This document shows positions 39,942-56,990 of a stretch of 64,000 bases of DNA, piece after piece (positions within the stretch are counted from its first letter, which is position 1; the number at the start of each line of letters is the position of its first letter). Both the position numbers and the translations under genes were made by a program. The DNA is from an uncultured Chlorobiaceae bacterium. GTDB lineage: Bacteria; Bacteroidota; Ignavibacteria; UBA10030; SZUA-254. The stretch covers positions 6,557 to 70,556 of the forward strand of contig CAYPFY010000002.1 in the NCBI GenBank assembly GCA_964410105.1, written 5' to 3'. The notes beneath the pieces were generated by a model, which had not been told where the DNA came from, made no database searches, and saw nothing but the letters and a program-made list of their open reading frames with translations.

Positions 39942-42656
39942 TCAGAATTCTTTCGACGAGGAAACATGTGCGTCACCGAGTTTGACATTTTTCGGGAAAA
40001 CGTTCGGAGGAAAGGGACGGGGGGGCATAGGGCGGTCCGCAAAACTCTTCTTTGCCGTAAGAGACAGCACACTGCCGGCGAGAGATTCCGTGCCGGTGAG
40101 CCACGCTGAAACATTCCACGGCCTCGGCGATTCAGGCGACACGATCCGGACCTCACATCTATGCTTACCCGCGGGGATTTTCAGGGTATGCCACGAAGAA
40201 CGGGCCTCGGTCGGTTCAGACCGGGCCGTATCCACCTGGCCGTCGACGGACACAAGCGCCGCAAAACTCTTGGGCGCAGTTCTTGCAGGCGTCAGAAGCA
40301 GAGCAAGAAGTTTGGGAGAGTCGAGAGACACATCAAAAGACAGGCGGGCACCGTCGGACGTGAAGGACCGTCGGGCCGCCGATTCGGATTTGAGGCTCTG
40401 CGGGAGTCCGGAAAGATTTGCGTGGGAGGCAAGCTTCTCAGGGTTTAAAATCCTCACAGCTGAGCGTGGCCCATAGACGGAAAAGGTGATCTTATTCCCC
40501 TCCCTCCCGATAACATCGAACGGTGCCCCCGCCAGGAGGGGTTCGTCACAATCCTTAAGCGGATAAATTTCGTACACAGCCGTCTCATAGCCGCTCAGGG
40601 GAAGGTCCGCGACCTGCCCTTCACGATAGAGAGTCGGGGAAATCCAGTGGTCGGGATACACCCTCTCGAGAACAAGAGATGACCCCGAAGAATTCAGCCC
40701 CATCTCATCAGCAAACGGGACTTTTACCGACGTCGGGGTCATCACCGGATTTCTGACGGCGAGGATCCCCCGGGAACCTTTGAAGTGTGCATAGCCATAA
40801 GGCTGGCCTTTCGTCGGGTCGCCGCCGAACATTTCCGTCGTCGAGAGAATGTCGAACCGATCCCGGGCCCATTTCATCGCCTGTCCGATTGCATCCCATT
40901 CCCCTTCGTTCAGAATATCGGGGGAGATATAGAGCTCCCACATCGCCACGCCGCGCGCGAGATACAGCACCACTTCATTCGTAAACTTATCGAGAGGCTC
41001 ATCCTTGCCGCCGAGCCACTCAAGATTCCCCTTGATAATCCCGTGCGTCATCAGATTGGCGACAGGGAACCACATCTTCTGGCGTGTGAAATCATCATAC
41101 AGAACAAAATCCCGGTACGTGATCGCAGCGTCGCGGGGACTGATCGACGGAACATCTGCGTAGCCGAAATCGGCTCCCTGCATCCAAATCGTATTGGCAT
41201 ATAAAACCCACCAGGGGCTCAGCCATGTGCCCGAGGTAATATTCAGGAACATGCCGGGATTCCTCAGGCGCACGGCCCGGCACTTGCTGATCAGCGACTC
41301 CATCACCGAGCGGCGGGAAAAAATGCCGACGGGGTGGCCGTGATCCGGCTCGCTGCAGGAAAACTGAATCCCATCCCACTTAAAATATCCGATTCCCTGG
41401 TCGGCAAAATCCGTGACCCGTTTTTCGAACAGTTTCTGATAATTCCGGCCGGCGAGGCAGAGCATCGCCGTATTACGGGTATGCCCGACGACCTCATAAC
41501 CATGCGCCTTCATCCAGTCGATCCGTTTCATCCGGAACGAATACCCGCCGGTCGGGCCGAGCCACATGCCGAGCGACGTATGAGTTTTCTTGAGTTCATC
41601 GGCGATGACCGTCAACCCCCGGGGAAACTCCTTGTCATTCAAAACCCAGTCGCTCTCATACGTATCCCAGCCATCGTCGAGAACGAACGCATCCAGCTTT
41701 ATGTCATGCTTCTCGATCATATTCCTGCGGATAAGATCGATCATATGGAACACATTCTTCTCCGTCATCCAATTCCCCTCGGGCACCTTGGGGTAGGTCA
41801 TTGACCGGAGATCGTACCAGCTGTTATAGAGAGTAAACGGTTGCAGAGGAGTGATACGGATGTCGTCGACATACTTCATAAAAAACTGTTTCACATTTTT
41901 TGTTGGTGAAACCCCTTCAACGACCGTCTCGCTCTCAACCCAGGCCCCGTTGATTTTCTCGCCGACCTCGTGGCCGCACTGGATGCGGGAGGATTTTGCA
42001 TCAAACACATTATCGGCTGCCGGATACTCCACGCCGAAAAACCCCCCTCCGGATAAAGAACGAAAGGCAACGGGTTGACCGAACCCCCCATCCTTCAGAA
42101 CCGAGACTTTTTGTTTGACCCTTCCGTCGACCGGACAGATTTTCTGGAGAAAATGCCCCGCCTCGCCCGTATCCGAGAGAGCCAGAGATTTCTTGACATA
42201 AAACGCCTCCGGATCGAGGCGGTATCGCAACCGGGCCAGCAGCGGATAATCGATACCCGAAAGATCGATCAGAAGCTCCTTCTTTCCGGACCCGGGATCA
42301 CGGAACTCATGGTGGTCGACATGAAATTCGGACTGAGTCAGACGAACAGGATTCTCTGCGTTATTGAGGTTTTTGGGGGCCTGCCAGTCGGTCCACATTA
42401 TTTCTGCAGAGAAACCCCCGTCAGTTTCGATCTGTGCCGGTTTTGCCGCAAAAGACTTTGACCACTCGGCGTGTGTTGAAAGCTGCTCGGAGACAATCCT
42501 GTTAGAATCAATCGTCACTGAAAGTTCGACCCGAGCATTCGCGAGAATCAAGGAAAACTTTCCACGCGGCTCGCGCGCGGGACCCGGTTGGGCCGAAGCC
42601 AGGCAAAAAGCGAGATTCAGGGAAACGGTAAAAAACGCTACGTGTAAATTCATCAC
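39942..42656 (-). CDS. clan GH-D (GH36-like) alpha-galactosidase/alpha-GalNAc-ase family protein
   Basis: Signal peptide. FVLDDGW and YFKWDGIQ motifs resemble GH36 or melibiase. 904 aa. ATGA overlap with GH20. Confidence 0.55.
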   Translation of the reverse strand: MMNLHVAFFTVSLNLAFCLASAQPGPAREPRGKFSLILANARVELSVTIDSNRIVSEQLSTHAEWSKSFAAKPAQIETDGGFSAEIMWTDWQAPKNLNNAENPVRLTQSEFHVDHHEFRDPGSGKKELLIDLSGIDYPLLARLRYRLDPEAFYVKKSLALSDTGEAGHFLQKICPVDGRVKQKVSVLKDGGFGQPVAFRSLSGGGFFGVEYPAADNVFDAKSSRIQCGHEVGEKINGAWVESETVVEGVSPTKNVKQFFMKYVDDIRITPLQPFTLYNSWYDLRSMTYPKVPEGNWMTEKNVFHMIDLIRRNMIEKHDIKLDAFVLDDGWDTYESDWVLNDKEFPRGLTVIADELKKTHTSLGMWLGPTGGYSFRMKRIDWMKAHGYEVVGHTRNTAMLCLAGRNYQKLFEKRVTDFADQGIGYFKWDGIQFSCSEPDHGHPVGIFSRRSVMESLISKCRAVRLRNPGMFLNITSGTWLSPWWVLYANTIWMQGADFGYADVPSISPRDAAITYRDFVLYDDFTRQKMWFPVANLMTHGIIKGNLEWLGGKDEPLDKFTNEVVLYLARGVAMWELYISPDILNEGEWDAIGQAMKWARDRFDILSTTEMFGGDPTKGQPYGYAHFKGSRGILAVRNPVMTPTSVKVPFADEMGLNSSGSSLVLERVYPDHWISPTLYREGQVADLPLSGYETAVYEIYPLKDCDEPLLAGAPFDVIGREGNKITFSVYGPRSAVRILNPEKLASHANLSGLPQSLKSESAARRSFTSDGARLSFDVSLDSPKLLALLLTPARTAPKSFAALVSVDGQVDTARSEPTEARSSWHTLKIPAGKHRCEVRIVSPESPRPWNVSAWLTGTESLAGSVLSLTAKKSFADRPMPPRPFPPNVFPKNVKLGDAHVSSSKEF

Positions 42657-44899
42657 TTCACCTCGATCTCATCGGCAAAGAGCCACGAATCGCTTCCGGC
42701 GCCGGGTTTTCCGGCCGGAATCTTCCCTGAGTTGAGTGCGACGACCTTCACAAACCTCGCCGGACGGCTGTCGAATTTCACAAAAAGATGAGATCCGGAG
42801 CGTGCAATTTTATCAAAGGAAAGTTTTCCCACGCTTATGAGATCGAGAGAATCGGTTCCGGAAAAAACCTCAAAACTCTTCGGCGGATAAATCCAGCTCG
42901 CCTCGGACGCCACAAAATTCATCGACACCTGTGAAACGGGCACCGGTTGGCCGAGGTCGATAACAGCTTCCAGATCGGGGCCCCACCACCCGATCCACCC
43001 CTGGCCGACGCTGGACGAATCTCCCAGAACGCCGTCGACGAGACTAAAGGCGCCGGACCCGTAATAATCCTTATGCGGAGGAGTCTTGAGAACAACAGAC
43101 TTCCCTGTCGATTTCGAAACATGGAATTCGCGTGTGGATGATCTTCCCTCCTGCCCGTCGGCTCCAACTGCGAGGAATTTTAGAGCCCCATCGCTTGTCA
43201 CATGAATCGGGGAAGAATAGCGTGCTGATCCCGTGGATGGCGGAGAGCCGTCGAGAGTGAAAAAGATCGACGAAGAGTCAAGCGGAGAGGACAGTTCAAC
43301 AGAGACGCCATCCGGGGCAGGCGATACCTTTGGTGCAACCTGGAAAACGGAGCGAGAATAATTCACGTCCATCTCATCCAGGAGGTGAAAATGCCCGAAA
43401 AGGCGCTTTTGAAAATTTTTATAATCACGCGCTTCGCGGGGACTCCACAAGACTTCGGAAAGGGCGGCCATGCGGGGCATAGCCATATACTCCACCTGTC
43501 GAGGAGAGGTAATATACTCGGTCCAGACGTTTCCCTGAGCACCGCGAATGAACCGTTGCTCGTCAACGGAAAGTTCAGTGGGGACAGGCTCATAGGAATA
43601 CACCTTTTCCACAGTCGTATAACCCCCGATGGCGAGCGGTTCATCCTGGGGAAAGCCCTGATAGTGATCGAAATAGCAAAAACCTCCAGGCGACATAACT
43701 GCGGAATGCTTTTGGCGGGCGGCAGCGATACCGCCATCGGTCCCTCTCCAGCTCATCACCGTAGCATTCGGGGCGAGGCCCCCGTCGAGAATCTCGTCCC
43801 ATCCGACAATCTGCTTCCCTTTTGAATTCAAAAACTTCTCAATCCGGCGGATAAAATAACTCTGCAGCTCATTTTCATCCTTGAGCCCCTCTTTTTTCAT
43901 GAGCTCCTGGCAGTAGGCGCACGATTTCCAGCGCGTCTTCGGGCATTCATCCCCGCCGATATGAACATATTTCCCCGGAAAGAGATCGCACACTTCGCTC
44001 AGAACGTTTTCAAGAAACTCGAACGTATGCTCCTTCGGGCAATAAACATCGTCGAAAACCCCCCATCCTCTGGCCACGTCGAACGGACCCCCGGTGCACG
44101 AGAGTTCCGGATAGGAGGCGAGGGCAGCGACGGAATGCCCGGGCATTTCAATTTCAGGAACAATCGTGATATGGCGCTTCTGTGCATAGCGGACGAGCTC
44201 CCTGATATCATCCTGCGAATAGAACCCCCCATAGCGGATCGAGTCGAACTTCTGGGCGTCATAGGGACCGATCATCGACCCGTTGCGCCATGCGCCGATC
44301 TCGGTCAGCCTGGGATACTTCCGGATCTCTATCCGCCACCCCTGATCCTCCGTCAGATGCAGATGAAACATATTCATCTTATACATCGCGATATAGTCGA
44401 TGTATTTTTTCACAAACTCGACAGGGAAAAAGTGCCGGCAGACATCAAGATGCATCCCGCGCCAGGAGAATCGGGGCGCATCGTCGATCTCCAGGCAGGG
44501 AACCTCGGGATCACCCCTGGTAAGAAGTTGACACAGCGTCTGAAAGCCGTAAAAAATCCCGGCGCGACCCCCGCTTAACGAAATCCCATCCCGTGCGATG
44601 CTGAGCGAATAACTCTCATCCTTCTCATCGTCGCGCAGAGAAATCCAGACACACCCTGCGGCTGGTTTTTTCCGCACCTCAGCCCGAAGAGCAAACCCAA
44701 AGCGTTTCGCAAATATTTCTGCAAAAACGTCTCCCTCTCCGGCAAGATCCTTAGATGAGGCGGCGATTCGGGTTTTCGTATCAAACCGGAACGTTCCCTC
44801 CTTCACACGAAGCGTGGATGGCACTGGAATAAGAGGAAAAGCAAAAGTTTGTGCCGAAATTGCCGCCGCTGCCAGAACCGAAGAGAGCCGCATGAACAC
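42653..44899 (-). CDS. GH20 beta-N-acetylhexosaminidase with C-terminal carbohydrate-binding domain
   Basis: Motifs RGMHLDVCRHF, HLHLTEDQGWR and HIGGDE. The C-terminal domain ends ...SWLFADEIEVK, like the GH92 C-terminus. Confidence 0.9.
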   Translation of the reverse strand: MFMRLSSVLAAAAISAQTFAFPLIPVPSTLRVKEGTFRFDTKTRIAASSKDLAGEGDVFAEIFAKRFGFALRAEVRKKPAAGCVWISLRDDEKDESYSLSIARDGISLSGGRAGIFYGFQTLCQLLTRGDPEVPCLEIDDAPRFSWRGMHLDVCRHFFPVEFVKKYIDYIAMYKMNMFHLHLTEDQGWRIEIRKYPRLTEIGAWRNGSMIGPYDAQKFDSIRYGGFYSQDDIRELVRYAQKRHITIVPEIEMPGHSVAALASYPELSCTGGPFDVARGWGVFDDVYCPKEHTFEFLENVLSEVCDLFPGKYVHIGGDECPKTRWKSCAYCQELMKKEGLKDENELQSYFIRRIEKFLNSKGKQIVGWDEILDGGLAPNATVMSWRGTDGGIAAARQKHSAVMSPGGFCYFDHYQGFPQDEPLAIGGYTTVEKVYSYEPVPTELSVDEQRFIRGAQGNVWTEYITSPRQVEYMAMPRMAALSEVLWSPREARDYKNFQKRLFGHFHLLDEMDVNYSRSVFQVAPKVSPAPDGVSVELSSPLDSSSIFFTLDGSPPSTGSARYSSPIHVTSDGALKFLAVGADGQEGRSSTREFHVSKSTGKSVVLKTPPHKDYYGSGAFSLVDGVLGDSSSVGQGWIGWWGPDLEAVIDLGQPVPVSQVSMNFVASEASWIYPPKSFEVFSGTDSLDLISVGKLSFDKIARSGSHLFVKFDSRPARFVKVVALNSGKIPAGKPGAGSDSWLFADEIEVK

Positions 44900-45539: not shown

Positions 45540-47912
45540 CTACCAATGAACAATGATCCGTGAATCAGCATTCCGGAAATACAAATTCCGGACATTCAAA
45601 GGGCCGGTCGAATAGTGAGCCGTTTCATGATTAACCGAGATGTTCCGGATCCCTTCAAACTGATGCATGCATAGATTAATGACGGCGAAACGAGACGTGA
45701 AAGACCCTTCCCGGCCGTCGAACACGATTTCCCTCGATGAAGGATCGAACGAGATCTTCCGCATATAGAACATTCCGTGAGAATAATCGACCGACACGCC
45801 ATCGTCCTCATAATAGAGAAAAGATGATTTCGGGCCGTCATAAACATGAATCTTCAGAGTATCGGAGCTTGTCAGCGAATACTGAGTCACCGGTTGCATC
45901 GGAATAATGGCGCCGGCCCTGACGAACACCGGGAGATCGTTCAACGGCGCATCCACGATAAAATCCTGACCCCCCTTAAAAACCTGTTCCGTCGACAGGC
46001 GGTACCAGCTCCCGGCCGGAAAATAGACCCGGGCAAGCTTCTCGGTGCTCGCAACGGGCGCGACCAGCATATTATCGCCAAAAAGATATTCCTGCTGAAA
46101 CTGTTCCCAGTAGATATGCTCATCGAACGGCGAGTCGAGAGCCAGCGACCGGGCAACCGGCATTCCGGATAAAGTCGTCTGATAGAAAGTCGAGTACACG
46201 TAGGGCAGAAGCTCATAACGGAGGCCGATCACCCGGCGTGAAGCGGCTTCGACCTCTTCGCCGAATGACCAGGGCTCCTGCCGTTTCATCGCGTATTCCT
46301 TATGATTGCGGAAAAACGGAGTAAACGTCCCGATGGAAAGCCATCGGAGAAACAATTCCGGTGTAGCGTCGCCTGAAAACCCGCCGATATCCGGCCCCGC
46401 GAAAGCCACTCCTGAGATTCCCATAGAATTCACCATCCGTACGGCCAGAAGCATATGATCGTCGGAGGGAACATTATCGCCGGTCCAGACCGCTGAGAAC
46501 CTTTGCACCCCTGCATAACCGGCTCTCGTCAGCACAAAAGGGCGGCGCCCGTTCATCAGAGATTTCGCCCCTTCGTACGTACTGCGGGCCATCTCGAGGC
46601 CATAGATATTATGCGCCTGGCTCATCGTCATCGGAGAAACCTCGCCGGCGCACTCGACCAGATCGGGAACATGCTGACCCCAGACGGCGGGCTCATTCAT
46701 ATCGTTCCAGAACCCTTCCACGCCGGGCGAGATCAGTCTTTGGAAGTTCTTCCCCCACCACAGCCTCGCCGCGTCCTTCGTAAAGTCGGGAAAATGACAG
46801 CGCCCCGGCCACACGGACCCCACATAAAAACTTCCATCCGGATATTTCAGGAAAAAGTCATTCTTCGAACCCTCGTCGTAGGCAAAATACCCCGGCTCGA
46901 CTTTGATGCCCGGATCCACGATCGTCACAAGATGGAACCCCCACCGTTTCAGCGTATCGATCATTCTTGCGGGATCCGGGAATCTTTCGGGATTCCAGGT
47001 AAAAATCTTGTACGAATCCATGTAGTGAATATCCAGATAAATCACGTCGGCGGGGATCTTCTTCTCCCGGAAAGTTCTGGCGAGGTTAATCACTTCCCTG
47101 TCGGGATAATAGCTCCATCGGCACTGCTGATAGCCGAGGCCCCAGAGCGGGGGGAGAGGCATTCGTCCGGTGAGATATGTATATCCCTCAATAATTCCTG
47201 CCGGGGATGTTCCCGCGAAGAAGTAATAATTCATTTCCCCTTCGGCAGCGGAGAAGAAAAACCTCTCGTTATCGGTTGACGCCCCGAAATCGAACGTCGT
47301 CCGGCTCGTATTATCCAGAAAAACCCCATAGGCCGAATGATCATGGAGCCCTATAAAAAACGGGATCGAGCTATAAAGCGGATCATCCTCGGTGCCGTAG
47401 GCATAGTGATCCGTGTTCCAGTTCACGAACGACCGGCCCCGCCGGTCGAGTCTCCCCGTCTTCTCCCCCAGTCCGAGGAACCGCTCATCCTGAAAAAGCC
47501 TTTTGAAGCACGAAACAGATGTCCCCTGCCACGTAATGCCGAGGTGAGCATCATCCTCGTTGAGCAGCTTTCCGTCTCTATAAAAGTGAAACCTCAGCGG
47601 GCTCTTTGTCACGATCACGGTCAGTGAGGAGGTTTTCAGAACAACCTGGGCGGGCCCATCCTGGATTTCCGAAAAATTGCCGGAGGCCTCATGAACGACG
47701 GCGTATGAAAAATCCCTCGAGAACTCGTCTTTCGCGGCCCGGAGGCGAACAATATCGGGCCGGTAGACCGTCAGAGAAACCCTTGCATTGGCGGCGACAA
47801 AGACGACGCCGTGATCCGATTTCTTCAGAGAAACGAAATTCCCAAGCTGTTCCGAGACAGCGGCCCATGAAGTCGCGGCCGACAGCAAAAGACACGCGCA
47901 GAAAAAGGTCAT
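45540..47912 (-). CDS. GH31 alpha-glucosidase/alpha-xylosidase
   Basis: GH31 nucleophile motif GFWNDMNEP and acid/base region SAVWTGDN. 790 aa with signal peptide. Confidence 0.9.
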   Translation of the reverse strand: MTFFCACLLLSAATSWAAVSEQLGNFVSLKKSDHGVVFVAANARVSLTVYRPDIVRLRAAKDEFSRDFSYAVVHEASGNFSEIQDGPAQVVLKTSSLTVIVTKSPLRFHFYRDGKLLNEDDAHLGITWQGTSVSCFKRLFQDERFLGLGEKTGRLDRRGRSFVNWNTDHYAYGTEDDPLYSSIPFFIGLHDHSAYGVFLDNTSRTTFDFGASTDNERFFFSAAEGEMNYYFFAGTSPAGIIEGYTYLTGRMPLPPLWGLGYQQCRWSYYPDREVINLARTFREKKIPADVIYLDIHYMDSYKIFTWNPERFPDPARMIDTLKRWGFHLVTIVDPGIKVEPGYFAYDEGSKNDFFLKYPDGSFYVGSVWPGRCHFPDFTKDAARLWWGKNFQRLISPGVEGFWNDMNEPAVWGQHVPDLVECAGEVSPMTMSQAHNIYGLEMARSTYEGAKSLMNGRRPFVLTRAGYAGVQRFSAVWTGDNVPSDDHMLLAVRMVNSMGISGVAFAGPDIGGFSGDATPELFLRWLSIGTFTPFFRNHKEYAMKRQEPWSFGEEVEAASRRVIGLRYELLPYVYSTFYQTTLSGMPVARSLALDSPFDEHIYWEQFQQEYLFGDNMLVAPVASTEKLARVYFPAGSWYRLSTEQVFKGGQDFIVDAPLNDLPVFVRAGAIIPMQPVTQYSLTSSDTLKIHVYDGPKSSFLYYEDDGVSVDYSHGMFYMRKISFDPSSREIVFDGREGSFTSRFAVINLCMHQFEGIRNISVNHETAHYSTGPLNVRNLYFRNADSRIIVHW

Positions 47913-50158
47913 TTCGTCAACTCAAATTCGTTCTTCCTGAGATAGAACCTGTAAGACTTAATCTTGCCGGGGGCGTCCTCCTGTCTCGGAAGATAGCGAA
48001 ACCCGGCGACATTCCTCGACTCACCCAGATCGATCGCAATCGCGTGGGGATGGTCGGGTTTGCTCTTCCCCCACTCTGTATGCCAGATCGTATGAGAATC
48101 GTCATCGAACGCGTTTTCAGCATGTCCGTCCTCAGCGTCGAGCTCCTCGCTGTCGACGGTAAAGACAGACCATTTCTCTCGTGGAAGCGCATGGCCCGCA
48201 GAGTCGAGCAGATAAAACTCCGCGATCGAGGCAAAATGATCGTGCGCCAGCGACGACAGAGATTGCAGACAGGCGAAGCGGGCTGGTCGGGGAGAGAACG
48301 CGACACTTTGCAAGGAATCCCCCAGAAAACCTTCCGCCGCCACATCATGGGAGTCAAGACGAAGTGTTCCTGAAACCCGGTGCGGCAGGGGAGGTTTCAG
48401 TCTGTCCGGAACCAACTCATCGAGCACAGCCCCTTGAGCCCCTTCCACCGATTGCTTCGCGGCCCCGGACTCAAAGACGACGAGGTCGTTCTCGCCCTGC
48501 TTCAGCCATGGCCCCGGCACATACAGAGTCTGCTGCGGCCCTACGTACCAGTAGCGGCCGAGCGGGTGGCCGTTCACCCAGGCGCAGCCCTTATTCCAGC
48601 CGTGCATATCCAGAAAACCGTCGCCCGCCCGTGCAAGCGAAAATTTTCCACGATAGAATCTCGGCCCGGACCGTTCGGAAGTCTGCGTCCAGCGGAGAGA
48701 ATTCAGACTGTCCATAGGAAGTGAAAAAATCTGCCAGTTGACGAACTCACGGCCGTTGACGGTAATTTTTTCAATACCCTTCCGGTTATCCAGCATCTCA
48801 CGACCATAATTGATGCGCCCGCCATTCTCGACGAGAACATCGAGAGTCCCGGAAGTTTTCAGCGCCAGAGGTTTGAATTTATATCTTCTGTCGAGTACGC
48901 CGATTTCATCGCGATTCAGAAAAACCGTGCAATAATCACGCAGCCCCTTGATGACGAGTTCCCCCGGAGAATCGACAGCCGTTCTATACAGAATAAATCC
49001 GTAAGACTGGCCGACATCCTCCATGGAGAGAAGGTTTTTTGATGTGAAAGGTTGAGGCAGCCCGTCGAACAGGCTTACCGATTCCCTCAGCGGCACCTTC
49101 GGAATTCGGACTGGCGGATTCTGCGGCGGGATTTCCCGGGTAGGCGAATACTTCTTCAAAACATCACGGAACGCAAAATACTTCGGCGTAGGCCGGCCCG
49201 TCTCGTCGAGGGGAGCGTCATAATCATAGCTGGTCGGTTGTGGTTGAAACCTTCCCCCGAAATTCGCACCGTTCATGAACCCGAAATTCGTCCCCCCGTG
49301 GAACATATACAGGCTCACCGAGATCCCGTGAGCCAGCAGCCAATCGAGCTCACGTGCGCTCTCAGCGCCATCGACCACGGAATGCTTTTCCCCCCAATGA
49401 TCGAGCCAGCCGGGGTAGAATTCAGGGACAAAGAACGGGCCGTTGGGGCGGAATCGTTTCACCGCTCGAAAAACTTCCTCGCCTGTCGCCCCGTTCACAG
49501 CCGGGAGAACGTCGGGCAGATAAGCATTCGGCATCTGGGAGGGTCCGTCGGCTGTAAAGAGAGGAACCTCAAAGCCGGCATGGCGGATCATGTTTCGAAC
49601 CGAACCCTCGTAGAGCGTATCCTTGCCATAGGATCCGTATTCATTCTCCACCTGCACCATAATAATCGGGCCGCCGCGGGTAATCTGGAGTGAAGTCAGC
49701 TCCTCGCCGACGTGCCTGATATATTCTTCGGAATACCTCAGAAAGCGTTCATCCCGGCTCCTCACAACGAGATCGTGTTCCTTCAGCAGCCACGAGGGAA
49801 ATCCGCCGAACTCCCACTCAGCGCAGGCATAGGGGCCCGGGCGCAGGATAACATACAGCCCGACCTCCTGTGCGGTGCGCACAAAAGCGGCAACATCGGC
49901 CATCCCGGAAAAGTCGAACCGGCCGGGACGGGGCTCATGGACATTCCAGAACATATACGTCGAGACCGTATTGAGCCCCATGCACTTTGCCTTCACCAGC
50001 CGATCCCGCCAGTATTCCCGTGGAATGCGGGAATAATGCATCTCGCCGCTTATAATTTGAAACGGCTTCCCGTTCAACAGAAACTGAGGCCCGTCGGCCG
50101 TAAAAGACTGGGAATAGGCGCAGCTCCAGAACCCGATAATCAATGCGAAAAATTTCAT
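47909..50158 (-). CDS. GH35 beta-galactosidase with C-terminal F5/8-type-C (discoidin) domain
   Basis: Start MKFFALIIGFWSCAYSQ at 50158. GGPIIMVQVENEYG catalytic motif. C-terminal W.TEW...PH.I.IDLG...GFRYLPRQ discoidin pattern. ATGA overlaps at both ends. Confidence 0.9.
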   Translation of the reverse strand: MKFFALIIGFWSCAYSQSFTADGPQFLLNGKPFQIISGEMHYSRIPREYWRDRLVKAKCMGLNTVSTYMFWNVHEPRPGRFDFSGMADVAAFVRTAQEVGLYVILRPGPYACAEWEFGGFPSWLLKEHDLVVRSRDERFLRYSEEYIRHVGEELTSLQITRGGPIIMVQVENEYGSYGKDTLYEGSVRNMIRHAGFEVPLFTADGPSQMPNAYLPDVLPAVNGATGEEVFRAVKRFRPNGPFFVPEFYPGWLDHWGEKHSVVDGAESARELDWLLAHGISVSLYMFHGGTNFGFMNGANFGGRFQPQPTSYDYDAPLDETGRPTPKYFAFRDVLKKYSPTREIPPQNPPVRIPKVPLRESVSLFDGLPQPFTSKNLLSMEDVGQSYGFILYRTAVDSPGELVIKGLRDYCTVFLNRDEIGVLDRRYKFKPLALKTSGTLDVLVENGGRINYGREMLDNRKGIEKITVNGREFVNWQIFSLPMDSLNSLRWTQTSERSGPRFYRGKFSLARAGDGFLDMHGWNKGCAWVNGHPLGRYWYVGPQQTLYVPGPWLKQGENDLVVFESGAAKQSVEGAQGAVLDELVPDRLKPPLPHRVSGTLRLDSHDVAAEGFLGDSLQSVAFSPRPARFACLQSLSSLAHDHFASIAEFYLLDSAGHALPREKWSVFTVDSEELDAEDGHAENAFDDDSHTIWHTEWGKSKPDHPHAIAIDLGESRNVAGFRYLPRQEDAPGKIKSYRFYLRKNEFELTK

Positions 50159-52485
50159 GACCCTTCCGTCACCGTACGAAGCTCCCGGACCTTCGCATAA
50201 AATTCCGGAAGATCCATTTCCTTCAAAAAAATCATCCCGCGGGCTGCCCGAAGTCTGGGATGCGTATGGCTGAGAAAAAAATCCTGACCCAGGCACGTTT
50301 TCACTGCCCGGTACTGCTCCACAAAAATCTTCTGTGCGAGTTCAGAGAAAGGCCCGTCATGCTCATAACTTGGAAATGATGCCGAACTCTGCGACCCGAA
50401 ACAGTTCATGAACGCCGAATGGAGCAATGACAGAGTATTCAGAGAAACCGGGATGAAAACATTCGCCTCAGAAATTTTAAACCGGTACCAGACATTACGG
50501 TATCCCCAGATGCGGAGGCTGGAAGCCTCCTTTTCGTAAAGTCTCACCGCCCCGGCGACAGCCTGAAGAGCTTTATAGTGAGTATCGGGCCCGCTCCCCT
50601 CGGGATCGAAGGCCACGGTCACCACATCCGGGCGAATAAGCCTCAACAGTTCAAGAATTGGCTCGACATCCCGCTCTACCCGGGGCTCCTCCCCAAAAAC
50701 ATCCCCCTGATAAAAGCCGAGCCGGAGGGCGTACACATTCGACGATTCTATCCCGAAATACGCCCAGAGCAGTTCCACCTCCCATTCCCTCAGAGACCCC
50801 TTTAAAACCTGCACATCCGGGGGATCCTTTGCGCCCGGATACTGATTCAGGAAGTACTCCTCGAGAGCCTTACGTTGGAGCAACGCCGCCTCGGGAGAAC
50901 CATAGAGTTCGACGAGATTGCGGAGGAACCGGCATGCTTCGGCCTCATCCTTTTGTTCCTGGCTTTTTGCTGCGGACCCGTCGAGATACTTATAGACATC
51001 CTCCATACGACGGGACGGATCGACGAAATAACCACTCGTTAAAAGCTCCGCGAATTGAGGTTTTTCAACAAACCGGGAAGACTTCTTCAGAATTGAAAAA
51101 ACATATCTGTTCGAAACGGAGGTAAAGCCGGAAGTAAGATTGGCGAAGAAATGCTTGTTGTCGGGATCTCTCACCAGATGATAAATATAAGGAAGGTATG
51201 CGAGCATCACATCGTCCTGATGGGGTTCCGTATGCAGAAATCTGAGACCGGATACGGGCTCGAGGCCCCTTTCAATCTTCCGGACAATCCGGTTATAGGC
51301 AGACTCCGCAAAAAGTTTTTGAGGGGAATCCTGCAAAAGTTCCCTCCCCCGGGGGTCGGCTGAGAAATCATCGCGGGTAATTTCCAGAAGAGATTTATTT
51401 TTCAGAAGCGAAACCGAGATGGCCACCTCATCGGCGGCCTCATCGGGAGCGGGGCGCGATCTCTCAAAATCTTCGAGCCGGCGTTCCGTCAGCAGACTTG
51501 CGGCCCCCCGGGTCAGATAAAACCTGGAATTTTCCAGATCCTGGAGGGCAGATGCCGGATATTGCTGGTGCTTCTTTTCCTCGATAGCCTGCCTGACAAC
51601 GGACGCCTTCGCATCTCCGGCGGCGATGATGATCGCTGTTGCCGAGGAATTACACGTTATAGTCTCCAGACCGATCGTGATCACAAGGCGATTCCTGGAA
51701 ATTTCGACCCCGCCGAGATCCGCTGCGGCGGCGGCCTGCGTCTCATAATTTGTCGCCGTCAGGCGCGTGACGGAATAGAAACTCGACCCGCGGACATTGA
51801 ACGCCACATGTCCGTCTGGTCCGATGCCGCCGAGAAAAAAACCGATCCCCCCGAGATCCCTGATTCTCGATTCATAGTCGGTGCAGAAAGAATCCACGCG
51901 GTTGATGACATCCTTTTGACGTTTTTCCAGGTCCGTCGACGTCTGGCGAACCCGCAGGGACAGATCCACCGAAAAATCCGGAAACAGCTCGCTCATCGAA
52001 GCATTTGAGGGAAGGCCCAGGAAGGTCGCGTCGATCACGAGCGCCCGTGAAGCATCGAGACCAAAACCTTTTATATAAAATTCCGACACATAGTGGTGAA
52101 AACTATTATGCTGCGACGCGTCCATCGGATAAAACTCATCAATCTGGACAAACCGGAGAGACTTCATATCGGGTGGCCGGGAGCGATCGATTCCGTACGC
52201 ATCGAGAACCTCCCGGATGTTTTTGTCATTCCAGTTATGGAGAATACGGGTCACCCACTTGATAAAATACTCGGGAGTTCTTCCTGTCGGGAGGGCAACG
52301 AGTCCTCCGGGATTCTTCAGAACCCATTCCACGAACCGGAACGCGGTGAACTTCCCGAGCAGCGGGAAATTCTCAAGCTCAACGACGTGAATCTTTTCGA
52401 CGGGGGAATAGATGAACTTCCGGCCGGAGCGTTTCACCTCGATACTTTCAGCGGATGACGTCGTATCGTAGACTCTCATCGGCAT
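50155..52485 (-). CDS. long-form glucosamine-6-phosphate deaminase-like protein (NagB N-domain + about 450-aa C-terminal domain of unknown function)
   Basis: NagB motifs LPTGRTP, VQIDEF and GIGPDGHVAFNVRGS in the first about 300 aa. Remaining about 470 aa has no known catalytic motif. Confidence 0.75.
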   Translation of the reverse strand: MPMRVYDTTSSAESIEVKRSGRKFIYSPVEKIHVVELENFPLLGKFTAFRFVEWVLKNPGGLVALPTGRTPEYFIKWVTRILHNWNDKNIREVLDAYGIDRSRPPDMKSLRFVQIDEFYPMDASQHNSFHHYVSEFYIKGFGLDASRALVIDATFLGLPSNASMSELFPDFSVDLSLRVRQTSTDLEKRQKDVINRVDSFCTDYESRIRDLGGIGFFLGGIGPDGHVAFNVRGSSFYSVTRLTATNYETQAAAAADLGGVEISRNRLVITIGLETITCNSSATAIIIAAGDAKASVVRQAIEEKKHQQYPASALQDLENSRFYLTRGAASLLTERRLEDFERSRPAPDEAADEVAISVSLLKNKSLLEITRDDFSADPRGRELLQDSPQKLFAESAYNRIVRKIERGLEPVSGLRFLHTEPHQDDVMLAYLPYIYHLVRDPDNKHFFANLTSGFTSVSNRYVFSILKKSSRFVEKPQFAELLTSGYFVDPSRRMEDVYKYLDGSAAKSQEQKDEAEACRFLRNLVELYGSPEAALLQRKALEEYFLNQYPGAKDPPDVQVLKGSLREWEVELLWAYFGIESSNVYALRLGFYQGDVFGEEPRVERDVEPILELLRLIRPDVVTVAFDPEGSGPDTHYKALQAVAGAVRLYEKEASSLRIWGYRNVWYRFKISEANVFIPVSLNTLSLLHSAFMNCFGSQSSASFPSYEHDGPFSELAQKIFVEQYRAVKTCLGQDFFLSHTHPRLRAARGMIFLKEMDLPEFYAKVRELRTVTEGS

Positions 52486-52498
52486 CGGGGCCGGAGGT

Positions 52499-53362
52499 TC
52501 AGAGAGAGAAATTCGGGAAATTTTTGTTCAGATAATCCCTGACGATGGCGATATCGTCCTGGCGGGTAAGATCGGGCACGTACTCCGAACGGGGAATAGT
52601 CGCCACCGCATTCGGATTTTCGGCCAGAAGCATCATGATAGCCGCGGGCAGATCCTTCTCGTTCCGCACGGGGTGGAGAGGAACGTTGAGCAGAACAGGA
52701 AGGATCACATCATAGGAAAACCGGAAAATGTTCATACTCACACGGATCCTCCCGTACCTATCGGCTGAGGCAGCGATCTCCTCGGGGGTCGGCTTCTCGA
52801 TGATCGCTTCGAGAATCCCCTCCAAACTCTTCCGGAGGACGGAGAACTGTTCAATGCGGGACGGTTCAAACCGAAGGGCACTCCAGTCATAATCGATAAG
52901 CGCCGTTGAGTGCGGGGTTGCCAGAAGAAGGCTGAAGGCTGCACGCGAGTAAAGATTATCCGCATTGCACACGGTAAACTTCTGACCATGCCAGTCCTTT
53001 CGAAACTGTAGAGCGCACGCAAGGGCATCAGCCGTGCCGAGAGGCTTGGATCTCCCCTTGGGAATTGGCTGGATGGCGTAAGAAATCTTGAGACCGTGGA
53101 ACTCATTCCCCTTATCAGCCTTCCCGTAATGGGAGCGAAACGGTTTATCGTCTTCCCCCACAAGAATCACCACATCCTTATAGCCGGATTCGCGGGCGTT
53201 AAAGAGCAGATAATCCATAAGGGGCCGGCGATCCTTGCCGAGTCCGATCATCGCCTTCGATTTTCGAAGAGCCTCTTTCGAGAGGGCCGGGTCGGCTGAA
53301 GACGAAGGCTTCTTCATGCGGGAAGAAATCCCTCCGGCCAGGATGACGAGATTCGGATTCAT
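52499..53362 (-). CDS. sugar-1-phosphate nucleotidyltransferase
   Basis: Start MNPNLVILAGGISSRMKK (G-loop of NTP_transferase) at 53362. ATGA overlap with the upstream kinase. Confidence 0.7.
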   Translation of the reverse strand: MNPNLVILAGGISSRMKKPSSSADPALSKEALRKSKAMIGLGKDRRPLMDYLLFNARESGYKDVVILVGEDDKPFRSHYGKADKGNEFHGLKISYAIQPIPKGRSKPLGTADALACALQFRKDWHGQKFTVCNADNLYSRAAFSLLLATPHSTALIDYDWSALRFEPSRIEQFSVLRKSLEGILEAIIEKPTPEEIAASADRYGRIRVSMNIFRFSYDVILPVLLNVPLHPVRNEKDLPAAIMMLLAENPNAVATIPRSEYVPDLTRQDDIAIVRDYLNKNFPNFSL

Positions 53363-54447
53363 ACGGCAAGGCCCTGTTCGATGCGCGAGCCCTCGTCCGC
53401 GGTAATCACGAAGGCTTTTCCGCCCGCCTTCTCGATAGCCCCGGCGACATTGTGGAAAAAATCGGGGGCGTAGACAAACATACACCCGCCGCCCCCGGAT
53501 CCGTTGATCTTCCCTCCGAGGGCTCCGGCAGAAAGAGCAGCATCGATCATAGCGTCGATCTTCGGAGTAGAAATCTTCAGCACGTCACGCAGGACAGCCT
53601 GATGATCATTCAGCAGAGAGCCGAGGCGGGCGTCATCGGGCGTACGGGACTCGAGAACTGACCGCGCGTCAAGTGTAATCCCGTGATTCCGCACAGTCGC
53701 TTCGAGCAAAAGATAATCCTCAGGCGAAAGAGCGGACTTTAACTGAAGGATTGAGTCGAGAGTTGCATTGAGAAGCGAGAAGTGGGGGAATCCGGCTATG
53801 AGGCGCCGGGAAATATCGAGCACCCGGTCTTTCACCCGTGCCAGAACTTTTTTTGTATCCTTGGGCTCCCCCGAATCTCCCAGCACAAATGCGCCGAGCC
53901 GCGGATTCAGACGGGTCACCTTACATTCAGGGGAAAAATCGATAAACGTCACGCCGCCGAAAGCCGTTGAATACTGATCCATCATCCCTCCCGGTTCGGA
54001 GAATTCAAGCACCTCAGCCTCATAGGCGAATCGTGCGCATTCCGATGCAGAAAGCTCGCGGCATTGATCGCTCATCAGAGCCAGAAACCGGACCCAGCAC
54101 ACGACCAGAGCCGAGGAGCTGGACGTGCCCGCATTGATCGGAATAGTTCCCGAGACGGTACAATCCAGGCCTGACGAAAACGAAAACCCGTGCCGGCGCA
54201 AGACTGTCACGGACGAGCGGAAATAGTCGCGCTCACGGACATAGCCTGCGTCCTCCAGCGAGAACGATTCCCGCGAGCCGATATTGGGCAAGTGTACAAA
54301 AATGCGGGAATCATTGCGGCGGCGTCCCGAAACGGATATTCTCAGCGAGATGGCGCAGGGAATAACCGGAAGCATCAGATAATCCTGATGCTCGCCGAAA
54401 AGACATATCCTCCCGGGAGCAGATACGCACACGTCACCCATTGGCAT
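53359..54447 (-). CDS. GHMP-family sugar 1-kinase (galactokinase-like)
   Basis: N-terminal SAPGRICLFGEHQDY matches the galactokinase signature. GHMP motif II TIPINAGTSSSSA. 362 aa. Confidence 0.75.
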   Translation of the reverse strand: MPMGDVCVSAPGRICLFGEHQDYLMLPVIPCAISLRISVSGRRRNDSRIFVHLPNIGSRESFSLEDAGYVRERDYFRSSVTVLRRHGFSFSSGLDCTVSGTIPINAGTSSSSALVVCWVRFLALMSDQCRELSASECARFAYEAEVLEFSEPGGMMDQYSTAFGGVTFIDFSPECKVTRLNPRLGAFVLGDSGEPKDTKKVLARVKDRVLDISRRLIAGFPHFSLLNATLDSILQLKSALSPEDYLLLEATVRNHGITLDARSVLESRTPDDARLGSLLNDHQAVLRDVLKISTPKIDAMIDAALSAGALGGKINGSGGGGCMFVYAPDFFHNVAGAIEKAGGKAFVITADEGSRIEQGLAV

Positions 54448-54570
54448 TATCGCTCAAACGTTTCAGCATCCCGCGGATATCCCTGATCCCCCTGACGGTA
54501 ACCAGAATTGTGACAGTCGAATACCAGAGGAGGCAGCCCGCCAATAGAAGCCACCAGAACCAATGGCTCG

Positions 54571-56040
54571 TCATCGCGCGAAAACCTCCCTTCTCTGAGG
54601 CTTCAGAAGCGAGCCTATGACCATGGCGGCTGCTGCAAGGAAGTAGGTTGCGATGCCCGAATAATAGGGACCGATCGCATCGGCGATGAGTTTTGTGGAA
54701 GAGAGCTGCTGGAGGACCAGAAAGGTTGCCGGGACGGCCGCTCCGGCGATGATTGCCGCGGCGGCTCCCCATGAATTAGCCCTTGTCCAGTAGCAGGCTG
54801 CAACGAGAAGCACGGACATACTTGAAAGATAAATAGTTCCGGTGATGCCGAGATAGGTCCACAGATCGCCTTTCAGGGGATACCAGAGCCCGTAAAAAAG
54901 AAGAAACAGACCGATCAGGGCGACAATCGATCGGTTCCAGAACAGGCCCCGGCGGTCCGACCAGACCTTTTTTCTGAATGGAGCAAGAATATCGTTATAG
55001 ATCACGCTCCCCCAGGCAAGCATATACGAGGAATCTGTGGACATATCGGCGGCGAGCATAGCCGCAACAAGAATACCCATAAGGCCGGCGGGAACTGCGG
55101 TGCTGAGATAACGGGGCATCGCATCGAGAGAATCGAACGAACCGGGAGACAGGGAAGCGAGGGCGGCGATCCCCCAGACACCCGGGATAAGAAACCGGCA
55201 GACAAAAAAGAATGCGGTGCCTTTATAGACCTGGAGCCCGGTCTTCGTATCGCGCGCGGCAAGCAGCCGGGCGATCGTGGTCTGCCAGGTAAGAACTGCC
55301 GCGAGATTCACAAACACATTAAACAGAACATATTGCCAACCCATCTCCGGATGGACGAACGGGTTAAATCCGCCAGCGCCGTAATGAGACGACACGGCTG
55401 AGACGATCGAACTCCACCCTATTGTTGAGAGAATAAGCACCGTCACAGCGATCAGCCCCGCGCTCATCACAATAAATTGCAAAAAATCCGTGACGAGCAC
55501 AGACAACATACCCCCGAGCACGGTATAAACTGACACGGCAACCAATAAAAGAGTCATCATCACTTCGAGATAGCGGACATCGAGACCGCTTACGAGCACA
55601 AGAAACTCCCCCCCGGTCCTGAGAAACACGCCCATATTCAGAAGACCCCCGAGGACGATCACAACCCCTGCGGCCCACCGGATGCGCGGGCCGAACCGCC
55701 GGGCGAGCAGTTCAGGGATAGTCATAACGCCGGCATCCCGGAGTTTTCTGACACAAAAACCTGTTGCTCCCACGGCATACATCGCTGCGGCGGTGATAAT
55801 TCCGGGCGTTGCGCCGGCGAAGCCAAAGCGGTAACCGTTCTGCGCGGTATACATACAGGTCACAATCCCGAATTCCGTGGCGGCGAGAGAAGCGATGCCG
55901 AGGTAGAGATCCATCTCCCTCCCGGCCATAAGAAAATGCTCCATAGTGCCGACATAACGGCGCACCATAATGCCGGCGATCATAGTGGCGAGGAGATAGA
56001 GCCCGACTATACCGCCGTCGAGGATCGTGAAGTTGGTCAT
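54571..56040 (-). CDS. sodium:solute symporter (SSS family) transporter
   Basis: About 13 TM segments. SSS-type N-terminus LYLLATMIAGIMVRR. The first ATG is at 56040; the track start is TTG at 56073. Confidence 0.8.
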   Translation of the reverse strand: MTNFTILDGGIVGLYLLATMIAGIMVRRYVGTMEHFLMAGREMDLYLGIASLAATEFGIVTCMYTAQNGYRFGFAGATPGIITAAAMYAVGATGFCVRKLRDAGVMTIPELLARRFGPRIRWAAGVVIVLGGLLNMGVFLRTGGEFLVLVSGLDVRYLEVMMTLLLVAVSVYTVLGGMLSVLVTDFLQFIVMSAGLIAVTVLILSTIGWSSIVSAVSSHYGAGGFNPFVHPEMGWQYVLFNVFVNLAAVLTWQTTIARLLAARDTKTGLQVYKGTAFFFVCRFLIPGVWGIAALASLSPGSFDSLDAMPRYLSTAVPAGLMGILVAAMLAADMSTDSSYMLAWGSVIYNDILAPFRKKVWSDRRGLFWNRSIVALIGLFLLFYGLWYPLKGDLWTYLGITGTIYLSSMSVLLVAACYWTRANSWGAAAAIIAGAAVPATFLVLQQLSSTKLIADAIGPYYSGIATYFLAAAAMVIGSLLKPQRREVFAR

Positions 56041-56246
56041 GGGGAGCAGGGGAAGATAAAGATTTCCGCCCAATTTACAAAGGGTGGGCGGATCGAAATC
56101 CGATCAAATCCTTTGATTTGGCCGGAATTTTAATTAACGTGGCGGGAGAACCTCAGGGCGTGCGCCCAGACCAGGCAAAACTTTTCCGCTGTGGTGGGAT
56201 ACACTACCATCTTTGACAACCAGGCATTTACACACAAGGAGCAAGA

Positions 56247-56990
56247 GTGGCACCGCGTGAATGGTGGAGAGATTTCTTTTCCGGACTGGCGGTAGAGATG
56301 TGGCGGGAAGCGGTCAATCCGGAGCAGACGCGCCGGGAGGCAGACTTCATTCAGCGGGGGATCCCCGAGGCTCCTTTGCCGCTCCTCGACGTCCCGTGTG
56401 GAAACGGACGGCTCGCGATTGAGCTCGCCGCCCGGGGGTGCACGCTGACCGGAGTGGACCTCTCTGCGGAGTTTTTGCAAGAAGCGCGCGAGCAAAGCAA
56501 CCAGAGGCGATTGTCGATCAATTGGGAGCTGCGGGAAATGCGCGATCTCACATGGAGAGACCATTTCAGAAGCGCATTCTGCTTCGGCAACAGCTTCGGA
56601 TTCCTCGATGACGAAGGGAACCGGCAGTTCCTCAAGGCGGTGCACCGCGTTCTGGCACCCGGCGGAATCTTCATCCTCGATGCGAGCAGCGTTGCAGAAA
56701 ATGTTCTTTTAAAAATAACCGATCACAGCGAGATGCAGATCGGGGACATCCGGTTCATCGAGGACAATCGTTATGACCAGCGTACGAAACGGCTGGAAAC
56801 GGACTACACATTCATCCTCGGCCGGAGGCAAGAAAAGAAATTCGGATCGCACCGAATATACACGTACAGAGAACTGCTGTCCATGATTTCCGAGGCAGGA
56901 TTCGTCACGTGCAGCTCTTTTGGATCGCTCGACGGAGAACCCTTCAAACCCGGGATCCAGAACCTCTACATTGTAGCGGGAAAACGGTAA
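56247..56990 (+). CDS. class I SAM-dependent methyltransferase
   Basis: Motif I LLDVPCGNGRLAIELA. Motif post-I VDLS. 247 aa. Confidence 0.7.
   Translation: MAPREWWRDFFSGLAVEMWREAVNPEQTRREADFIQRGIPEAPLPLLDVPCGNGRLAIELAARGCTLTGVDLSAEFLQEAREQSNQRRLSINWELREMRDLTWRDHFRSAFCFGNSFGFLDDEGNRQFLKAVHRVLAPGGIFILDASSVAENVLLKITDHSEMQIGDIRFIEDNRYDQRTKRLETDYTFILGRRQEKKFGSHRIYTYRELLSMISEAGFVTCSSFGSLDGEPFKPGIQNLYIVAGKR

Follow-up and report, generated by a model that had tools for sequence, protein, structure and literature searches.

The question raised by this locus is which sugar enters the cell's metabolism through a coupled pair of genes, and to what end. The pair lies in the 64,000-nt window analysed in this study (the whole stretch of DNA, taken from contig CAYPFY010000002.1 of an uncultured Chlorobiaceae bacterium) and consists of a gene for a predicted GalK-like GHMP anomeric sugar kinase (P0001) and a gene for a predicted sugar-1-phosphate nucleotidylyltransferase (P0002). 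The kinase-transferase module is real, conserved and uncharacterised, is familiar in its biochemistry, and very probably makes a nucleoside diphosphate sugar (NDP-sugar) from a free sugar. For the fuller proposal, in which the pair would serve as the cytoplasmic entry step of an operon for utilisation of a glycan-derived sugar, with N-acetylgalactosamine (GalNAc) as the first choice and galactose as the second, belief and doubt are evenly matched.

The kinase gene occupies positions 53359..54447 (362 aa; start letters MPMGDVCVSAPGRICLFGEHQDY) and the transferase gene positions 52499..53362 (287 aa), both on the minus strand, as are all other genes of interest. The two genes share 4 nt at positions 53359..53362, where the plus-strand letters TCAT read ATGA on the coding strand; the stop codon TGA of the kinase gene thereby overlaps the start codon ATG of the transferase gene. 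Comparison with the sequence and with Pfam matches showed that the initial annotation of this locus had been correct in every detail as regards the coordinates, the ATGA coupling, a sodium:solute symporter family (SSF) gene upstream and a NagB-like gene downstream. Its description of the pair as a GHMP sugar kinase of the anomeric type whose gene is coupled to that of a sugar-1-phosphate nucleotidyltransferase, with a symporter as supplier and a glycosidase operon as setting, agreed with the domain matches and the overlap.

Homologues of the kinase and of the transferase were found in thousands each at approximately 60% identity, many of them on shared contigs. In a scan with one genome per species, at least 582 carriers of the module were detected; judged by record title, they included Ignavibacteriota, 'Bacteroidetes' metagenome-assembled genomes, Kryptoniota, KSB1, Caldithrix, Balneolales, Fidelibacterota, Krumholzibacteriia, Melioribacter, Chitinophagales, Cytophagia, Arcicella and Flavobacterium. 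Of 121 genomes sampled evenly from the phylum to which the window belongs, 9 had the kinase, which is therefore an accessory trait. The 80 best related loci were then surveyed, 74 of which had enough DNA to be usable. The transferase was located within 400 nt downstream in 66 of these 74 loci and within approximately 20 nt in 57, overlaps or gaps of a few nucleotides being the rule. Natural kinase-transferase fusion proteins of 636-648 aa were also observed, although they were rarer than separate genes. In one such protein, residues 11-349 correspond to the kinase (35% identity to P0001) and residues 361-629 to the transferase (32% identity to P0002), the domain order being the same as the gene order. 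Since adjacency is conserved among the loci and natural fusions exist, the two activities belong together and their pairing is not a matter of chance. The notion of a 'split' bifunctional enzyme, put forward in the initial annotation, is thus borne out in that fused forms exist, but these run from kinase to transferase and are the rarer form.

The kinase gave matches above the gathering cut-offs to three Pfam families, GHMP_kinases_N (PF00288), GHMP_kinases_C (PF08544) and GalKase_gal_bdg (PF10509), the last being the galactose-binding signature with 41.2 bits against a cut-off of 23.1. The signature PGR-x-N-x-IGEH-x-DY was tested and found to be present at the N-terminus. Among 68 homologues with 56-64% identity, P11-G-R13, G18-E-H-Q-D-Y23 and G153-G-M-M-D157 were invariant in all 68. 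In pairwise alignments, R13, GEHQDY and GGMMDQ lined up with the matching motifs of human galactokinase GALK1 and the human GalNAc kinase GALK2, GGMMDQ being aligned with GIMDQ of GALK1; motifs of this type presumably provide the sugar-binding and catalytic residues. Mevalonate kinases, in contrast, have Lys in place of Arg13 and GEHAVV in place of GEHQDY. An AlphaFold model built from the homologue alignment had a mean predicted local distance difference test score (pLDDT) of 92; when it was compared with the PDB by Foldseek, galactokinases (human GALK1, Pyrococcus, Lactococcus) made up all of the 50 best matches, with template modelling (TM) scores of 0.8-0.87 and no mevalonate kinase among them. 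With the galactokinase signature also present, clustering with mevalonate kinases, which had been proposed as a check, was not observed.

Identity of the kinase to GalK, GALK1 and GALK2 was 22-29%, and the kinase reached no NCBIfam equivalog cut-off, all five galactokinase models remaining below theirs (approximately 100 bits against 227-509 bits). A maximum-likelihood tree was constructed from 12 family members, 4 canonical GalKs, 2 GalK-like proteins, 1 true mevalonate kinase and 2 HddA-like kinases. The family formed a separate clade, apart from both the canonical GalKs of related genomes and the true mevalonate kinase. Two sequences picked as 'MVK-like' resembled the heptose-kinase type by their N-terminal motif, as judged by eye. 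The kinase shares with GalK, GALK1 and GALK2 the fold, the PF10509 signature and the Arg, GEHxDY and MDQ motifs, and differs from GalK in its separate clade, its score below the TIGR00131 cut-off and a mevalonate-like glycine-rich motif at the C-terminus; unlike GalK, it is always paired with or fused to a transferase. We conclude that it represents a distinct, uncharacterised GHMP subfamily. Because it keeps the galactokinase way of holding the sugar, the reaction most likely to be expected from its sequence is phosphorylation of a galacto-type sugar at C1.

The transferase matched NTP_transferase (PF00483) with 47.4 bits against a cut-off of 21.2, and NTP_transf_3 below cut-off. The named equivalogs (GalU, RmlA, GlgC, GlmU and AglF) were not reached, the best score being 35 bits against cut-offs of 290-720 bits. 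G11, R15, K36, Q98, G109-T110, D135, E189-K190-P191 and D264 were invariant in all 70 homologues and, in alignments matched by hand, fell on conserved blocks of ADP-glucose pyrophosphorylase (AGPase), GlmU and PDB entry 3pnn. The N-terminal loop has the motif GG-x-x-S-R. By analogy to RmlA and GlmU, we take these positions to represent the phosphate loop, the catalytic Lys, a base-reading Gln, the catalytic Asp, the EKP sugar-phosphate motif and a Mg-binding Asp. The model of the transferase (pLDDT 91.5) displayed a Rossmann-like nucleotidyltransferase fold, and its Foldseek neighbours were RmlA, the GlmU N-domain, GalU, AGPase and ST0452 (TM approximately 0.7, E approximately 1e-15, 15-20% identity). 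These are sugar-1-phosphate enzymes, and the other check that had been proposed, relationship to the MobA type, gave no such relationship. The best PDB sequence relative of the family was 3pnn, an unannotated protein of Porphyromonas gingivalis (E 1.4e-9). An intact sugar-1-phosphate nucleotidylyltransferase is thus predicted, belonging to a subfamily without a name; no paralogue of the transferase was found in its own genome. Its nucleotide is probably uridine triphosphate (UTP), a guess made because of the conserved Gln and the epimerase neighbours in relatives.

In the window, the pair is embedded in an array of minus-strand genes. Upstream, separated from the kinase start by a 123-nt spacer, an SSF transporter of 489 aa is encoded at positions 54571..56040 (PF00474, 104 bits; TIGR00813, 132 bits) and is presumed to be the importer of the monosaccharide. 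Downstream, a long NagB-like protein is encoded at positions 50155..52485 (776 aa) when the first in-frame ATG is taken, leaving a gap of 13 nt after the transferase gene, or at positions 50155..52479 (774 aa) with a gap of 19 nt according to the gene call on a near-identical contig, calls from which were used for some of the gene boundaries in the operon. It is followed by genes for a secreted GH35 beta-galactosidase with an F5/8-type C domain (47909..50158; PF01301, 387 bits) and a secreted GH31 glycosidase (45540..47912; PF01055, 400 bits; signal peptide by eye). The NagB-like stop and GH35 start, and likewise the GH35 stop and GH31 start, overlap by 4 nt; such overlaps chain cytoplasmic and secreted proteins translationally within one operon. 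Beyond GH31, the array continues with an outer-membrane beta-barrel protein, a secreted GH20 beta-N-acetylhexosaminidase (42653..44893; PF00728, 399 bits), a secreted GH36-like (Melibiase-related) protein of 904 aa (39942..42656; PF02065, 33.8 bits; signal peptide by eye) with weak PDB matches to GH36 alpha-galactosidases, a GH27-NPCBM protein and GH92. Past GH92 are genes for a SnoaL/VOC protein, an unknown protein of 1026 aa, a glycosylasparaginase and a tricorn-like protease. By eye, signal peptides were seen on the hydrolases and none on the kinase, the transferase or the NagB-like protein.

Between the symporter and the upstream AddAB-cupin-HAD-aldehyde dehydrogenase genes lies a plus-strand methyltransferase gene (56247-56990; assigned on the near-identical contig to the Ubie/Methyltransf_11 type), and the sugar operon therefore probably begins at the symporter. 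Scanning of positions 49500-57500 for promoters and terminators revealed sites no more frequently than in shuffled sequence, and promoters of this group may not follow the sigma-70 consensus; the scan is uninformative on the operon limits.

The NagB-like protein scored 190 bits with PRK02122 and 87 bits with nagB, both below cut-off. Its N-terminal half is glucosamine-6-phosphate deaminase-like and its C-terminal half (approximately 430 aa) resembles PIG-L/LmbE deacetylases, as indicated by a language-model search (0.96); the Pfam PIG-L match to this half was below cut-off (17.9 bits, E 0.005). As no signal peptide was apparent by eye, the protein is presumed to be cytoplasmic. As a lead only, this NagB/PIG-L-like fusion may supply both the deacetylase and the deaminase steps of amino-sugar breakdown in a genome that has no NagA.

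All open reading frames of the 80 related loci were clustered, and the neighbours of the pair were counted. An SSF symporter was found directly upstream of the kinase in approximately 40 of the 80 loci. The most frequent glycosidase neighbour was a GH36-like protein of approximately 880 aa (20/80), with the usual order GH36-like, SSF, kinase and transferase, and a full-length NagC/Mlc-like ROK regulator with its DNA-binding head was present in 20 loci. Sixteen loci had a Melibiase-family protein of 679 aa, and 15 had GH109 (GFO/IDH/MocA plus Glyco_hydro_109_C), the characterised activity of which we take to be that of an alpha-N-acetylgalactosaminidase. Directly after the transferase, a GalE-like NAD-dependent epimerase was encoded in 15 loci (best model GalE, 206 bits). 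Other neighbours included DUF4874/DUF4832 (10/80), GH20 (8/80), a GNAT acetyltransferase (7/80), an APC permease (6/80), a long NagB-like gene after the pair (6/80), GH2 (5/80), CutC (5/80), AgaS (4/80), PfkB (3/80), AgaZ (3/80) and GalM (2/80). Typical orders were Melibiase-DUF4874-permease-GNAT-GH36-like-SSF-kinase-transferase-ROK-epimerase and Melibiase-GH109-SSF-kinase-transferase. At least one neighbour grouped as galacto-acting (GH109, GH36-type, GH2, GH35, GH27, GalE-like epimerase, AgaS/AgaZ/PfkB or GalM) was present in 49 of the 80 loci. The common denominator of GH109, GH36-type enzymes, GH20, the 4-epimerase, the NagC-like sensor and the Aga genes points to GalNAc, with galactose second.

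Three further arrangements were observed among these loci. In a ten-gene operon type (L010, L024, L026, L052 and similar loci), the Melibiase-family protein, DUF4874/DUF4832, an APC amino-acid-type permease and the GNAT protein are encoded upstream of the kinase; as pure speculation, this type could serve in the use of partly de-N-acetylated alpha-galactosaminoglycans (Pel or fungal galactosaminogalactan), from which galactosamine would be imported and re-acetylated. In loci L013, L018, L069 and L073, AgaS lies beside the kinase, transferase and ROK genes, accompanied in 3 of the 4 by PfkB and AgaZ, and no 6-kinase is evident. Some organisms may thus hold both a 1-phosphate and a 6-phosphate route, PfkB and AgaZ being the tagatose-6-phosphate branch of GalNAc and galactosamine catabolism. 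An AgaS-type GalNAc pathway was found only in Actinobacteria, Firmicutes and Proteobacteria in a comparative study (PMC5583593). Lastly, a CutC-family gene (PF03932, nominally copper homeostasis) adjoins the SSF or kinase gene in 5 of the 80 loci (e.g. L082:41-736) and, at L112:7645-8352, follows a fused kinase-transferase gene, the context of the fused form being SSF-fusion-CutC-GH20. This hints at an unrecognised role of CutC in the sugar pathway.

The genome from which the window is derived is 99% complete. A canonical galK was detected in it far from the window (TIGR00131, 356 bits; locus L007, contig C14, approximately 80.2-81.4 kb), and GalE-like genes were present only below cut-off, the best one on contig C5. 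None of GalT (PF01087), NagA, AgaS, AgaZ, GH109, the ROK regulator or an orthologue of the epimerase cluster was found in this genome. For the galactose-1-phosphate formed by the contig C14 galK product in a genome without GalT, the window transferase is one candidate processor. Of the 9 carrier genomes in the phylum sample, 4 have GalT. A separate galactokinase above cut-off was detected in 4, a sub-threshold GalK-like gene in 2 more and no other GalK-like gene in the remaining 3. An above-cut-off galactokinase and GalT occurred together in 2 carriers, GalT occurred with only a sub-threshold GalK-like gene in 2 more, and in two carriers GalT was adjacent to the GalK or GalK-like gene. In carriers possessing an above-cut-off galactokinase and GalT the module is not needed for galactose, and a different substrate is therefore favoured, although in a small sample. 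A substrate apart from plain galactose is likewise suggested by the canonical galK of the own genome together with the GalT in 4 of the 9 carriers and the separate galactokinases. As a whole, the comparison of GalT and GalK gave a mixed picture, and 9 carriers are too few to conclude firmly.

In the pathway that we propose, secreted exo-glycosidases (GH35, GH31, GH20, GH36-like, GH27 and GH92) would release monosaccharides in the periplasm, one of which would be taken up by the SSF symporter. The GalK-like GHMP kinase would phosphorylate this sugar at the anomeric carbon, and the coupled transferase would convert the sugar-1-phosphate and a nucleoside triphosphate, probably UTP, into an NDP-sugar. 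The UDP-sugar could be turned into its gluco form by a GalE-like 4-epimerase, the gene for which adjoins the pair in many relatives and lies elsewhere in the own genome. The resulting pool might then be drained to central metabolism (by reverse pyrophosphorylase action, a mutase and probably the adjacent NagB/PIG-L-like fusion) or spent on envelope synthesis. Overall, this would constitute a pyrophosphorylase-type Leloir route in an organism without GalT, NagA or the AgaS pathway. The evidence itself covers the identity of the genes, their folds and motifs, the coupling and the conserved context, and each chemical step of the pathway is inferred. A galacto-configured substrate is likely; GalNAc specifically is a tentative choice, for which confidence falls a little short of an even balance, and our judgement inclines slightly towards a mainly catabolic role.

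A similar logic is seen in the bifidobacterial galacto-N-biose/lacto-N-biose (GNB/LNB) pathway, which comprises the N-acetylhexosamine 1-kinase NahK, the uridylyltransferase LnpC and the 4-epimerase LnpD. In Bacteroides thetaiotaomicron, BT4240 is a GalNAc-specific anomeric kinase of the APH family that is essential for growth on GalNAc, and the BT4240-43 operon encodes this GalNAc 1-kinase together with GH2, an MFS transporter and GH109; that 2025 study assigned nothing beyond the kinase (PMC11992087). The proposed pathway resembles both systems in that a freed N-acetylhexosamine (HexNAc) would be imported, phosphorylated at C1 and then passed through a UDP-sugar and a 4-epimerase, and in that genes for a transporter and for hydrolases of the GH109, GH2 or GH20 type accompany the kinase gene. 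NahK and BT4240 have the APH fold (PF01636), whereas the kinase described here is a GHMP protein of the GalK-like kind, and the resemblance is functional only. Activation would also differ, being carried out by a PF00483 pyrophosphorylase instead of a GalT-type uridylyl exchange. In the module, the kinase role would be filled by a non-orthologous protein, and the activation step would be explicit and genetically coupled to it.

Several observations weigh against this proposal. With the kinase, TIGR00131 gave 104.6 bits against a cut-off of 226.65, and the highest NCBIfam score came from a model for archaeal mevalonate kinase (130 against 403 bits). Resemblance to mevalonate kinases is seen in the C-terminal glycine-rich motif GSGGGGCMF and in the stretch GDSGEPKDTKK, which in an HMMER alignment, ambiguous at that place, falls near Tyr236 of human GALK1, presumably the sugar-contacting Tyr. 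These mixed profile scores are explained by the GalK-type N-terminal and catalytic motifs standing beside mevalonate-like C-terminal stretches. In the tree, the deep branches were long and weakly supported (80/72), and no sister group can be named. A literature search revealed no study of this kinase or transferase family and no biochemical datum for any member. For the transferase, the nucleotide specificity leans on one conserved Gln and on analogy. The window carries none of the GalNAc-specific markers (GH109, AgaS, an adjacent epimerase or a NagC-like regulator); its nearest hydrolases, GH35, GH31, GH20 and GH92, would also release galactose, N-acetylglucosamine (GlcNAc), mannose or xylose, and the presence of GH20 and the NagB-like gene is equally compatible with GlcNAc and with GalNAc. 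Finally, no gene has been assigned to the return of UDP-GlcNAc to a 6-phosphate.

Galactose itself could be the dedicated substrate, the module then being a second galactokinase with a UTP:galactose-1-phosphate uridylyltransferase (Isselbacher or 'GalY' type) that replaces GalT for the galactose released by GH35, GH2 and GH36. We consider this improbable, though several points speak for it: the signature and fold of the kinase, the own genome without GalT, the GH35 gene within the same operon, the GalE-like and GalM neighbours in relatives, and the 3 of 9 carriers without another GalK-like gene are all compatible with it. In addition, GalY, an NTP_transferase (PF00483) of the Amuc_0031 type, has been predicted as the substitute for GalT in Bacteroides and Akkermansia (PMC5583593), and for Akkermansia still no GalT candidate was reported in 2026 (PMC13313206). 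As a small PF00483 enzyme proposed to convert hexose-1-phosphate into UDP-hexose in Bacteroidota that have no GalT, GalY can be likened to the transferase by family alone. The relation of the transferase to 3pnn is distant, and GalY, unlike the transferase, has not been reported as kinase-coupled.

A search for a second GalY/3pnn-like transferase in the own genome yielded only a MurU-like gene (locus L095, contig C15, approximately 54.9-55.9 kb), which encodes a 327-aa PF00483 protein with an N-terminal extension of approximately 95 residues and has the MurU N-acetylmuramate-1-phosphate uridylyltransferases 4y7t and 8hhd as its best PDB relatives. UDP-sugar pyrophosphorylase (USP) belongs to the UDPGP family and is large, unlike the small PF00483 proteins. 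The plant and protist route through galactokinase or arabinokinase and USP is comparable to the module in its anomeric GHMP kinase, its 4-epimerase and its use of a pyrophosphorylase instead of GalT, but is eukaryotic and has no operon (PMC6329318, PMC9306886). A second galactose route would be redundant where a canonical galK is kept, as in the own genome and several carriers, and where GalT is present, as in 4 of the 9; moreover, the GH109, GH20, NagC-like regulator, AgaS/AgaZ, GNAT and NagB-like neighbours indicate amino sugars.

The initial annotation had suggested that the released sugar is recycled into a nucleotide sugar rather than catabolised. In its pure form this would mean that the imported sugar is activated only for the cell's own glycans (lipopolysaccharide, capsule or glycoproteins) and not burnt. 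Kinase plus pyrophosphorylase is the classical salvage logic, and human GALK2/AGX1 salvage, an example of such a combination, follows the same logic as the module. Another example is Fkp of Bacteroides fragilis, a bifunctional L-fucokinase/GDP-fucose pyrophosphorylase in which a GHMP kinase and a nucleotidyltransferase convert a free sugar into an NDP-sugar (PMC11982464). No gene in the window clearly returns an NDP-sugar to central metabolism, and in Akkermansia scavenged mucin sugars serve envelope synthesis (PMC13313206). However, the module of the relatives is located within substrate-utilisation operons of hydrolases, transporters and regulators and is accompanied by a GalE-like epimerase, a NagC-like regulator, AgaS/AgaZ/PfkB or a NagB-like deaminase gene, for which reason catabolism fits better than pure salvage and the recycling claim is not favoured. 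The patchy, accessory distribution (9 of 121 genomes) suits a nutrient niche better than envelope synthesis, and no glycosyltransferase is a neighbour. Pure salvage is thus a rather doubtful explanation; Leloir-type catabolic entry is favoured over it as the logic of the module in relatives, and the UDP-sugar could also feed biosynthesis.

The comparison with Fkp further showed that the order of activities is opposite, as had been stated initially: Fkp runs from transferase to kinase, whereas the gene pair and the fusions described here run from kinase to transferase. No Fkp chain was found among the PDB sequence matches at E 0.001 or better, the kinase is GalK-like and not fucokinase-like, and the context consists of catabolic operons in which fucosidases do not recur, unlike that of Fkp. 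The module is outside the Fkp family, given the opposite order, the absence of detectable specific similarity and the different context.

These results also bear on the possibility that another glycan-derived sugar (GlcNAc, mannose, L-arabinose, xylose or fucose) is the substrate, which appears less probable still. GH20, GH92, GH38 and GH31 are neighbours here or in some relatives, GH95 was seen in one gene map, and the kinase is too divergent from characterised enzymes for its specificity to be read; but the invariant GEHxDY and MDQ motifs belong to the galactose- or GalNAc-binding kinase type, and the most frequent specific neighbours act on galacto-sugars. Among the sugars proposed initially, galactose and GalNAc thus remain good candidates, whereas fucose does not, as fucosidases are rare and not recurrent as neighbours, the kinase is GalK-like and no Fkp was among the PDB sequence matches. 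That the kinase is of a mevalonate or other non-sugar type with an unrelated transferase as its neighbour is scarcely credible: a mevalonate kinase model gives the best NCBIfam score and some depositors label homologues 'mevalonate kinase family protein', but the scores are far under the mevalonate kinase cut-offs (TIGR00549, 112 against 163 bits; PRK03926, 130 against 403 bits), Arg stands for the mevalonate kinase Lys and GEHQDY for GEHAVV, the 50 best fold matches include no mevalonate kinase, the link to a sugar-1-phosphate transferase, by coupling and by fusion, is conserved, and no isoprenoid genes are nearby.

With GalNAc retained as the first choice, a more specific version can be drawn, in which the pair and the NagB/PIG-L-like fusion would form an undescribed GalNAc catabolic route in bacteria without GalT, NagA or the AgaS pathway. 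GalNAc would be converted by the GHMP kinase into GalNAc-1-phosphate, by the transferase into UDP-GalNAc and by a GalE-like epimerase into UDP-GlcNAc. The latter might yield GlcNAc-1-phosphate by the reverse transferase reaction, followed by PIG-L-like deacetylation, GlmM and deamination by the NagB domain, giving fructose-6-phosphate. We regard this version as unlikely; if it were true, the GHMP kinase family would be the third independent invention of a bacterial HexNAc 1-kinase.

Given familiar chemistry and an inferred specificity, the finding is useful rather than surprising. The pair could serve as a compact two-enzyme tool for UDP-GalNAc and UDP-Gal analogues. In bacteria of the Bacteroidota group, the processing of galactose and GalNAc after uptake is only partly known, and many of these bacteria have no GalT. 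A widespread, coupled and sometimes fused kinase-pyrophosphorylase module, often accompanied by an epimerase, provides a testable set of genes for the missing steps in environmental glycan degraders.

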